Assembly (NCBI RefSeq): GCF_054482595.1
Contig: NZ_CM137008.1
Strand: one strand, 5' to 3'
DNA length: 64,000 nt
Program-made: the position numbers
Shown: piece after piece, positions 1 to 3,000 of the stretch
How the letters are laid out: the number at the start of each line of letters is the position of its first letter
How positions within the stretch are numbered: the stretch's first letter is position 1

Positions 1-3000
1 GTCCTGAAAATAAAGCATGCCGATACCACAAAGAATGCCGAGAAAGATGGCATTAAGAATTTGTAATTCCAGCTCAACTGCCGGAGTCGTCGCCATGAGT
101 ACGCTGGCGTAAAAACACATACCACTCACGATAGCAATGAGCATTAATAGTCGCTTGCCAATACGTTTCATGTAATAGCCTGCGATTAACATCATCGGAA
201 TTTCCAGACCGGCAGCGATACCAATCATTTCTCCAGCCAGTTTATCGGTTAGATGCAGTTCATCAATAATAAATAGCGGCATATTTATCATGTAGAGATT
301 ATTCGCCGCCCACATCATTGAACAAACCACAAAAAGTAGCCGCGTATCTCGCTTTCTATGGATGGAGGGTAAAATTTCTACGGGTTGGGTAACGACAGGA
401 ATATTTCTTTGTATTGATGGCAAAAACAACCAGACTATCAGCCCGCAAACAACAAATGCGATGGCAGCGGTGAGATACATCACTTTAAAACTAAATCCCA
501 TAGCCAGTTCATAAGCGAGCGGTGGCCCGATAACCCAGGCAAGCGAGATCTGAGCACGTAAAAATGTACTGAACATGACCGTCTCACGGCCTGTTCTGTC
601 GGCGTGTTCACGGGCGAGGGCGAACATTTGCGGGTTTGCGGTGGAAGCAAAACTACTCAGAAGTACGCCCGTTGAGAGGAGAATGAAGTAGTTGCGATTC
701 CACGCAAAAAGCGTGCAGGCCAGCACTCCAAATAAGCAACATAGCAGAATCAGTAATTTACGGTCGCCTTGTTTATCGGAGTGCCTTGCCAGAAATTGAC
801 TGACCAGAATTCCCATAATAGCGCTACCGGTGAAGAAAAAACCTACCATTATAGGACGGGCTTTCAGTTCATCTGCGAGGAATATACTTAGGGTGGGAGT
901 CTGGAGAGCGCCCGCAATACCCGTCAGAAAGGCGACAAGTAAAAATGCCGCGGCAGTGAGATCAAGTATTTTTGATGGAGTGGTAGCCGTTTTTTGCATT
1001 CTTCTGAATCACCGGGCGACAAAATATAACTGAGTTACAAATAAGTACCAGTCGAATGAGTATTGTATTAAGAATTTTTGAGTATCGCTGATACAACCAG
1101 AAAACAATGCTAGCGCAATATTATAGGGCCAGCAATTGAGATTATTAGCAAAAGCATGTTAAGAATTAATCACCGAATTTATATATTAATTATAGTAAGG
1201 CAATGAGCTATTTTTGATAGTAAAAATAAAACAAGTTGATTTGATATATTAAATGAACAAATTAATCTTGATGGCAGTCTGATTATTGGTGAAGTTTATA
1301 GGTCAGTTTTTTTCGCCAGCTGTTAAAGGAATAGAATAGTCGTATAAAAAAGGGTGTTCTGGAGCGTGTAAAACAACATCTTCACCTTAATGGCGATACA
1401 GTTGGCTGAGAGTCAGCAGGGGGCAAATCACCTGCAAATAAACACGGCGCATGCTGGCGCGAATATCGCGGATGCGTTCGAGGACAGAAGAACCGACAGG
1501 CGGATTCTTCAGTCGCTCATCGTCCATCACAAAACCTTTGATCAGGTATTCCTGAAGCCGATTGAATATTGAGCAGTAGAAAATCTCTGGAATGACAGTA
1601 TTACAAGGGGTTGGAGAACGTCAGTAGAGGCATTTTGGCGGAAGATCACAGGAGTCGAACCTGCCCGGGACCGCTGGCGGCCCCAACTGGATTTGAAGTC
1701 CAGCCGCCTCACCGGAGACGACGATCTTCCGCGCCTCGATTGCTACATGGAGGCGGGGCGCATTATAGCTACTTCCTTGAGTTTCTACATCCCCCAGATC
1801 AGTTTTTTCCGCCTAATACACGCAGCGTATTATCACGAAAGCATTATAGTTCATATAAAACCCATATTTTACAATGATATATGAGCGGAATTAACGCTAC
1901 CACGATCACATAAAACAAGAATCATAAATTAATAACCAGATATCGGAATATTCGCTCTCACAGGGATGGTTTACAAAATGCGTTATCGGTCTCAGCACCC
2001 CTATAGCATCAAGGAAAAGCAGATGAAGAGTGAAGTGTTGTCCGTTAAAGAGAAAATTGGTTATGGCATGGGAGACGCCGCCAGCCACATTATTTTCGAT
2101 AACGTAATGTTATATATGATGTTCTTTTATACCGATATTTTTGGCATTCCTGCCGGATTTGTCGGAACCATGTTTTTGGTCGCTCGTGCACTGGATGCGA
2201 TTTCCGATCCTTGCATGGGGTTGTTGGCCGATCGAACGCGCTCTCGCTGGGGTAAATTTCGTCCGTGGGTACTGTTTGGCGCACTGCCATTCGGGATCGT
2301 CTGTGTACTGGCCTATAGCACGCCAGATCTCAGTATGAACGGCAAAATGATCTATGCAGCAATTACTTACACCCTACTTACCTTACTTTATACCGTCGTC
2401 AATATCCCTTATTGCGCATTGGGTGGTGTAATCACCAATGACCCGACGCAGCGTATCTCGCTGCAATCCTGGCGTTTTGTGCTGGCGACCGCGGGAGGCA
2501 TGCTTTCTACGGTTCTGATGATGCCATTGGTTAATTTAATTGGTGGTGATAATAAACCACTCGGTTTCCAGGGCGGTATCGCGGTCCTTTCCGTGGTGGC
2601 ATTCATGATGCTGGCATTCTGTTTCTTCACCACTAAAGAACGCGTTGAAGCACCACCTACAACGACGTCTATGCGGGAAGATTTACGTGATATCTGGCAA
2701 AACGACCAGTGGCGGATTGTCGGTTTACTAACCATTTTCAATATCCTGGCGGTGTGCGTACGCGGTGGGGCGATGATGTATTACGTCACATGGATTCTGG
2801 GTACGCCGGAAGTGTTTGTCGCTTTTCTCACCACTTATTGCGTGGGTAACCTGATTGGTTCCGCACTGGCAAAACCGCTGACCGACTGGAAATGTAAAGT
2901 CACTATCTTCTGGTGGACGAACGCCCTGCTGGCAGTGATTAGCCTCGCGATGTTCTTTGTTCCCATGCAGGCCAGCATCACTATGTTTGTCTTCATCTTC

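Follow-up and report, generated by a model that had tools for sequence, protein, structure and literature searches.

In Salmonella pathogenicity island 3 (SPI-3), rhuM is found between the tRNA gene selC and the SPI-3 core, and in selC islands of the CP4-like type, in Salmonella, Klebsiella-like and other loci, it forms the island end. Degenerate tRNA-linked islets and cis-mobilizable elements (CIMEs) are a second related class; they are flanked by attachment (att) sites and have no integrase of their own. Anantharaman et al. (PMC3710099) proposed that RhuM itself is a toxin domain found in loci for restriction-modification and defence. Here we describe the selC region of a 64,000-nucleotide stretch of Escherichia coli DNA (the window; contig NZ_CM137008.1 of RefSeq assembly GCF_054482595.1), which is 100% identical by megablast to E. 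coli XH990 (NZ_CP019359.1). An internal piece of rhuM, 156 bp long, lies between selC and setC at 1403..1558 on the minus strand. Comparison with other loci suggests, with a probability that we put at about 85%, that this piece is the non-functional remnant of a rhuM gene that was once complete some 120 nt downstream of selC, where rhuM serves as the right-end gene of selC-targeting elements.

A rhuM pseudogene in the selC/setC spacer

The fragment lies in a frame that is open for 77 codons in XH990 (1390..1620, minus strand, stop at 1387–1389) and that is not conserved in other strains. The initial annotation, made from the sequence alone, had given about 75 codons at 1390..1560; the length was close, and the frame runs on to 1620. 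Its translation matches Pfam PF13310 (Virulence_RhuM) with an E-value of 4.2e-13 (49.6 bits), residues 20–65 aligning to positions 50–99 of the 252-position model, and ..LQEYLIKGFVMDDERLKNPPVGSSVLERIRDIRASMRRVYLQV.. falls within the match. A tblastn comparison with the intact RhuM of E. coli MS1170 places the fragment at residues 121–171 (E = 6e-22), and the family resemblance first noticed by eye is thereby borne out. Chance similarity to RhuM was ruled out because of these E-values and because intact genes occupy the same position at the locus. In DNA alignments (blastn and tblastn), 1403–1558 correspond to nt ~360–549 of the 1038-nt MS1170 gene, with ~92% identity over the aligned bases of 1429–1558. 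Relative to that gene the fragment has lost 24 nt in frame (VPDYFDEM), plus 8 nt and 2 nt close to its 3′ edge. The family match is significant, but the domain is incomplete and the coding sequence is not intact: the start and the C-terminal two thirds are absent, and the piece retains only aa ~121–183 of 345, so that it has neither terminus, as had been proposed. An NCBIfam scan of the fragment returned no family, and a tblastn query covering the C-terminal two thirds of the protein detected no further remnant in the spacer. The frame had been thought to open at the tRNA boundary; 15 nt separate its opening from the tRNA end, and the RhuM homology begins at 1558, 78 nt away.

The fragment is a dead, neutrally drifting pseudogene. 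Among strains that carry the spacer, a TAA replaces AAA in frame (..LV*GF..) in K-12, 05_3471, and NCTC9040, a 1-nt indel in a run of C shifts the frame in K-12, 23CRST013, and NCTC9040, and a 15-nt deletion shortens it in 23CRST013; interruption in K-12 and other strains therefore marks it as neutral. These lesions make it highly improbable that the 77-codon frame, or the 47-aa GTG-initiated open reading frame (ORF) at 1387–1530, encodes a functional small protein, or that the DNA is a selected regulatory element. Such a role would account for the open frame in XH990 and for the 96% identity of the first 75 nt of the fragment to full-length rhuM genes. Against it, the frame corresponds to model positions 50–99 alone, and a regulatory RNA element finds no support in Rfam, which matched only tRNA-Sec in window 900–2100 at E-values up to 1. 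Because of the same Rfam result, a small RNA or riboswitch in the spacer was rejected. The pseudogene is an ordinary feature that is already annotated and is not specific to one strain. In XH990 the NCBI Prokaryotic Genome Annotation Pipeline (PGAP) lists a partial pseudogene, 'rhuM: RhuM family protein', lacking both the N- and the C-terminus (BW242_RS02610, window 1429–1557), and its counterpart in K-12 MG1655, D7U33_RS22510, is a partial rhuM pseudogene with an 'internal stop'.

The surrounding genes frame a short interval. selC (tRNA-Sec, anticodon TCA) occupies 1636..1730 on the minus strand (ARAGORN; Rfam RF01852, 83.8 bits, E = 1.4e-17); it is intact, and no element is inserted in XH990. 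The window begins within setC, a sugar efflux transporter gene whose 5′ part spans 1..999 on the minus strand (PGAP annotation of XH990 and K-12). The spacer is therefore 1000–1635, or 636 bp, in agreement with the ~600 bp reported initially. Beyond selC, yicJ and then yicI follow on the plus strand (PGAP annotation and ORFs). The longest yicJ frame starts at 1966 and PGAP places the start at 2023 in XH990 and K-12, a trivial difference in start site (window 1966–2022).

The locus shows some of the marks by which tRNA-linked islands are recognized. It lies at the 3′ end of an integration-site tRNA gene, the fragment starting 78 nt after selC; its presence varies between strains, with at least four haplotypes between selC and yicL; and its composition is atypical (GC 0.21–0.31 at 1101–1350). 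Other marks are missing. The spacer holds no integrase or mobility gene, as the initial annotation had said; its ORFs are the rhuM frame and short chance ORFs. The 3′-terminal 21–24 nt of selC (1636..1659, minus strand; CGACTCCTGTGATC(T)TCCGCCA), which are repeated after rhuM in other loci and form the crossover core for integrative elements in other strains, are unoccupied here. A second, attR-like copy, for which 1036..1635 had been singled out, was not found in 1000–1635 (best local alignment score 16, the chance level), and a scan of the whole window with up to three mismatches recovered selC alone. The SPI-3 core genes misL, marT, and mgtCB are absent from beside selC, and setC alone stands between the spacer and yicL.

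Intact rhuM beside selC and the ancestry of the fragment

Intact counterparts of the fragment occur at the same locus in other E. coli. Using megablast against 5426 complete E. coli genomes, with an 80% coverage threshold for both the spacer and the rhuM segment, the rhuM segment was recovered in 845 genomes (~16%), LF82 and IHE3034 among them. A 69–75-nt piece of the window (1484–1558) matches within full-length 'virulence RhuM family protein' genes at 96–99% identity. In MS1170, and likewise in the LF82/IHE3034 type, a full-length rhuM (345 aa; WP_001280585.1 in MS1170) starts 52 nt after selC on the strand of the fragment. The order in MS1170 is selC, rhuM, a hypothetical gene, and yicL. 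About 110 nt past the rhuM stop, AGAGGCATTTTGGC(-4 nt)GATCACAGGAGTCG repeats the last ~18 nt of selC and the next 11 nt. The window and MS1170 haplotypes share three things alone: the 15 nt after selC, the rhuM piece, and all sequence from 29 nt ahead of the yicL start. setC is missing from the haplotype that keeps full-length rhuM, and no setC lies between selC and yicL in MS1170, Combat2C1, or ATCC 25922-type loci. In Combat2C1, selC is followed by a P4-like satellite and then by an additional 45-nt repeat, after which come rhuM and the distal repeat as in MS1170. The B2-type gene thus agrees with the fragment in locus, strand, and identity, and differs from it in being intact (PF13310 over residues 70–323), in having a degenerate selC 3′-end repeat as its boundary, and in being followed by a different AT-rich hypothetical gene.

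The same arrangement extends well beyond E. coli. A scan with the intact RhuM protein of one genome per species yielded 80 rhuM loci in other species; of these, 26 have a tRNA-Sec upstream in the same orientation, 16 of them within 900 nt. The latter species, with rhuM 150–900 nt after tRNA-Sec, include members of Proteus, Morganella, Providencia, Photorhabdus, Hafnia, Pantoea, Erwinia, Raoultella, Enterobacter, Huaxiibacter, and Pseudescherichia. E. coli, Serratia, Yersinia ruckeri, Hafnia, and Pseudescherichia all carry the core CGACTCCTGTGATC(T)TCCGCCA at 111–117 nt past the rhuM stop; the trailer from stop to core is conserved across genera, and sequences diverge directly past the core. 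rhuM is the last gene before the selC 3′-end copy both in CP4-like islands and in rhuM-only units (comparison loci L091–L094, L019, L021, L023, L026, L030, L064, and L078). In L091–L094, four contigs that include one from Salmonella (L092), rhuM (10001–11038) closes a CP4-like island, the genes before it being DUF932, antirestriction, RadC, CbeA/CbtA, DUF5983, and DUF4942; the selC core follows at ~11151, 112–113 nt past the stop. The RhuM on these contigs, which NCBI labels Salmonella enterica, shares 94% identity with that of B2 E. coli. Past the core, L092 continues with genes for an autotransporter, a ToxR-like regulator, an isochorismatase, and a P-type ATPase, presumably the SPI-3 core genes misL, marT, slsA, and mgtB. 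The placement of rhuM at the selC-proximal end of SPI-3, stated in the initial annotation, fits this gene order. Full-length rhuM with a selC repeat in other E. coli, together with rhuM as the last gene before attR in CP4-like islands, leads us to read the fragment as the relic of an island end.

It could be argued that rhuM is instead an ancient, vertically inherited neighbour of selC in Enterobacterales, and the fragment the product of gene decay in place with no island footprint at all. The presence of the gene 150–900 nt past tRNA-Sec, on the same strand, in 16 species of many genera suits such a history, as do leader motifs (TCTCTGGCATACT...GGAGGCGACATG) common to several genera. We consider it unlikely. 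Vertical inheritance does not fit the selC 3′-end repeats at a fixed 111–117 nt past rhuM in many genera, with host flanks diverging directly after the core, nor the position of rhuM at the far end of CP4-like islands of 10 kb or more, nor the tandem att-bounded units of strain E69 described below. The B2 RhuM also shows 94% identity to its counterparts in Klebsiella aerogenes, Salmonella, and Citrobacter but only 87% to that of E. albertii, which is incongruent with species relationships.

Two observations concern the trailer and the protein. The trailer contains a conserved inverted repeat (CCCCC..AAA...CATTTGGGGG) and ..CTATCAAATGCGACTCCTGTGATC. RhuM is unusually conserved, with 70–79% identity even in Vibrio, Shewanella, and Zhongshania; near-identical enterobacterial-type rhuM genes on contigs labelled Bacillota, Sphingobacterium, and Acidimicrobiales among metagenome-assembled genomes may reflect bin contamination.

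E. coli E69 connects the DNA between selC and the fragment to an older rhuM copy. Its locus (L008, 204–2080) comprises a partial selC copy, a leader of ~470 nt, intact rhuM, a 115-nt trailer, and a second core. Past the second core come ~100 nt homologous to window 1657–1555 and then another rhuM, which breaks off after aa 20, so that E69 holds two att-bounded rhuM units in tandem. Window 1657–1555 and E69 1878–1980 are 83.7% identical over 104 nt. The E69 flank continues to ATGTCAGACAAAGAC..., the start of the second rhuM; the window leader breaks off after ..TCGGCTT and jumps, at CAGG.., into rhuM nt 360. Since the leader at 1559..1635 (minus strand) matches the flank that in E69 follows an attR-like repeat and leads into the start of rhuM, we take it to be the native leader of the older copy. 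Its first 15 nt after the tRNA, 1621–1635, are common to all haplotypes. Parts of the older copy kept in different lineages are aa 1–20 (E69), aa 121–183 (the window), and aa 166–245 (B2-type genomes). Three lineages with three different parts argue for a complete ancestral gene beside selC that decayed independently in each. The B2-type part is a second, heavily decayed and unannotated remnant behind the att-like repeat of MS1170 (L003, ~10980–11183; 39% identity, tblastn E = 2.6e-11), and it is found also in the ATCC 25922-type locus L088. That locus ('Seattle 1946', 5310–10241) carries a different selC island, with neither setC nor an intact rhuM; its genes are RadC, YeeU/CbtA, a frameshifted AAA ATPase, a 'retron system putative HNH endonuclease', and DUF2441.

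The leader also bears on whether the fragment arrived already truncated, in a block of rhuM′, AT-rich DNA, and setC that replaced the selC–yicL segment by homologous recombination in the flanks. Such an import would explain the sharp breakpoints of the variable segment, one 15 nt past selC and the other 29 nt short of the yicL start, and setC and the AT-rich DNA do look foreign, both by composition and by a published prediction cited in PMC3661553. It is nevertheless improbable. The leader is homologous to E69 DNA that precedes a rhuM start codon, which places the old copy as a resident of Escherichia, and no donor linkage of setC to rhuM was seen among the 80 rhuM loci. SetC homologs were absent from all 80; these loci were chosen by rhuM, so the origin of setC is not settled by them.

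Under the island-end reading, the lineage ancestral to most non-B2 E. coli, including K-12 and XH990, would have had a full rhuM ~120 nt downstream of selC. A deletion at the microhomology GCTT would have removed the first ~360 nt of the gene with ~35 nt of leader; an internal 24 nt would have been lost, and the attR repeat would have gone along with everything beyond ~nt 549. The place of the 3′ part would have been taken by setC and AT-rich, H-NS-bound DNA, and what was left of rhuM would then have drifted neutrally. In other spacer-bearing strains, P4-like satellites and other islands have entered selC and pushed the spacer, relic included, to their far side. The homology, the haplotypes, the att repeats, and the broken frames are observed; the order of the deletions, and the replacement of the rhuM 3′ part by setC and its AT-rich DNA, are inferred. 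The initial annotation had proposed the footprint of an island once at selC. Comparison supports a relic of that kind, though hardly of a large pathogenicity island: the immediate ancestor at this site was probably an islet with rhuM alone, ~120 nt from selC.

Several points weigh against this reconstruction. The window retains neither an att repeat nor an integrase nor any further island gene, so that the case for an island origin comes from comparison and not from the window sequence. Only ~15 codons are common to the window fragment and the B2 remnant, which leaves a single ancestral copy plausible, not proven. That setC was gained rather than lost is likewise presumptive. The adjacency of rhuM and selC is, moreover, so widespread that the ancestral copy may have been a long-standing resident rather than island cargo.

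A more speculative extension is that leader, rhuM, 115-nt trailer, and selC core together form a single-gene cassette moved in trans by the selC integrases of P4-like and CP4-like elements, the K-12-type fragment being its fossil, buried by later events at the hotspot. We regard this as doubtful. If true, a candidate defence or toxin gene would be travelling among Enterobacterales on a minimal mobilizable carrier.

Age and distribution of the relic

The whole spacer is present in 3618 of the 5426 genomes (~3600, about two thirds, at ≥80% coverage), K-12 included, and the junction of fragment, leader, and selC is contiguous in 2491. The difference corresponds to ~1100 genomes in which an element sits in selC with an intact spacer on its far side. 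The displaced spacers end with window 1545..1656–1659, that is, with 21–24 nt of selC; examples are 23CRST013 (L007), where the element is a P4-like satellite, and L089, where insertion sequence (IS) and CbtA genes are present. Since elements displace the spacer intact, the relic belongs to the chromosome side of present integrations. It is old and fixed, and shared far beyond XH990. An identical spacer in all E. coli, devoid of an att repeat, had been named at the outset as grounds for abandoning the relic; its presence without such a repeat in ~3600 genomes, K-12 included, dates the relic without refuting it.

Individual strains show further rearrangements of the locus. P4-like satellite prophages inserted in selC separate the tRNA from the rhuM gene or fragment in Combat2C1 (L004, 12987–22952) and 23CRST013 (L007, 7114 onward); they carry genes for integrase, polarity suppression protein, ogr/delta, sid, and primase-helicase. 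In Z142-6 (L005, 8109–10316), two IS1 copies around a truncated integrase replace most of the spacer, including the rhuM fragment, and of the spacer the first 54 nt beside setC alone remain. In 23CRST013 (L007, 1–2155), genes for a type III secretion system translocon and chaperone (YopB/SseC and SycD/LcrH families) lie just past yicS, a few kb from selC.

The fragment itself is of little importance, being a neutral pseudogene that RefSeq already flags, beside an AT-rich tract already published as an H-NS-bound promoter island. The one modest new point is the linkage of selC, rhuM, and attR conserved across Enterobacterales. As a marker, it shows that the 'empty' selC of K-12-type E. coli is not pristine; the site carries the scar of an earlier rhuM-bearing element. 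The relic can also serve as a fixed landmark between chromosome and element sides for delimiting selC islands of the locus of enterocyte effacement type, P4-like, or CP4-like kind. Beyond E. coli, a rhuM at fixed distance from attR in many genera may interest those who study single defence or toxin genes riding integrative elements.

AT-rich DNA, RhuM function, and comparison with known systems

The remainder of the spacer, 1000..1402, is AT-rich DNA upstream of setC (32% GC overall), for which no relation to rhuM could be detected. The K-12 selC/setC spacer holds 'promoter island' 3834632_331 selC(+)/setC(+), one of 78, which is H-NS-bound in all chromatin immunoprecipitation data sets and is tied to a gene of predicted foreign origin (Panyukov and Ozoline, 2013, PMC3661553). 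Peaks for the RpoS and RpoH holoenzymes, obtained by systematic evolution of ligands by exponential enrichment (SELEX), also lie within the spacer (PMC5493296). In 100-nt windows, GC falls to 0.21–0.31 over 1101–1350, against 0.45–0.55 in the flanking genes. Promoter island 3834632_331 presumably corresponds to window ~1013–1343, going by the position of selC in U00096.2. A simple sigma-70 consensus scan gave no excess (1 site against 2.0 expected), and a promoter and terminator consensus scan gave no excess over shuffles. Neither blastn nor tblastx detected a homolog of 1001–1402 in loci that lack setC or in the rest of the window. Without a homolog in any rhuM or island locus, this DNA cannot be tied to the relic. 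The AT-richness assigned to 1080–1330 in the initial annotation is real, but it is not demonstrably island debris; we read the DNA as a silenced region upstream of setC.

What intact RhuM does is suggested by a match to a defence profile. The MS1170 protein matches PADLOC PDLC04852 (phage-defence candidate PDC-S05) with E = 3.1e-173 over residues 1–343, making the intact gene a candidate toxin or anti-phage gene; this status applies to the intact homolog and not to the fragment. An NCBIfam scan of intact RhuM returned no family, and a PDB sequence search with it found no match and so gave no structural lead on function.

Besides the intact B2-type gene, four described systems come close to this locus. 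K-12 promoter islands include the AT-rich part of the spacer, listed as one of them and H-NS-bound, but that work (PMC3661553) concerns transcription signals and H-NS rather than the rhuM relic. The PGAP pseudogene between selC and setC is the same feature as ours and underlies the spacer match in thousands of genomes; its annotation states no origin, and the homology at 1403–1558 reaches somewhat beyond the annotated 1429–1557. The description of CIMEs and degenerate tRNA-linked islets fits the B2, Hafnia, and Pseudescherichia units of selC, leader, rhuM, 115 nt, and att core, known from sequence; the window relic has lost its distal att copy and so can no longer be a CIME. SPI-3 and the CP4-like selC islands differ from the window in their core genes, none of which it contains, and the link between SPI-3 and the window is solely the shared rhuM island end.

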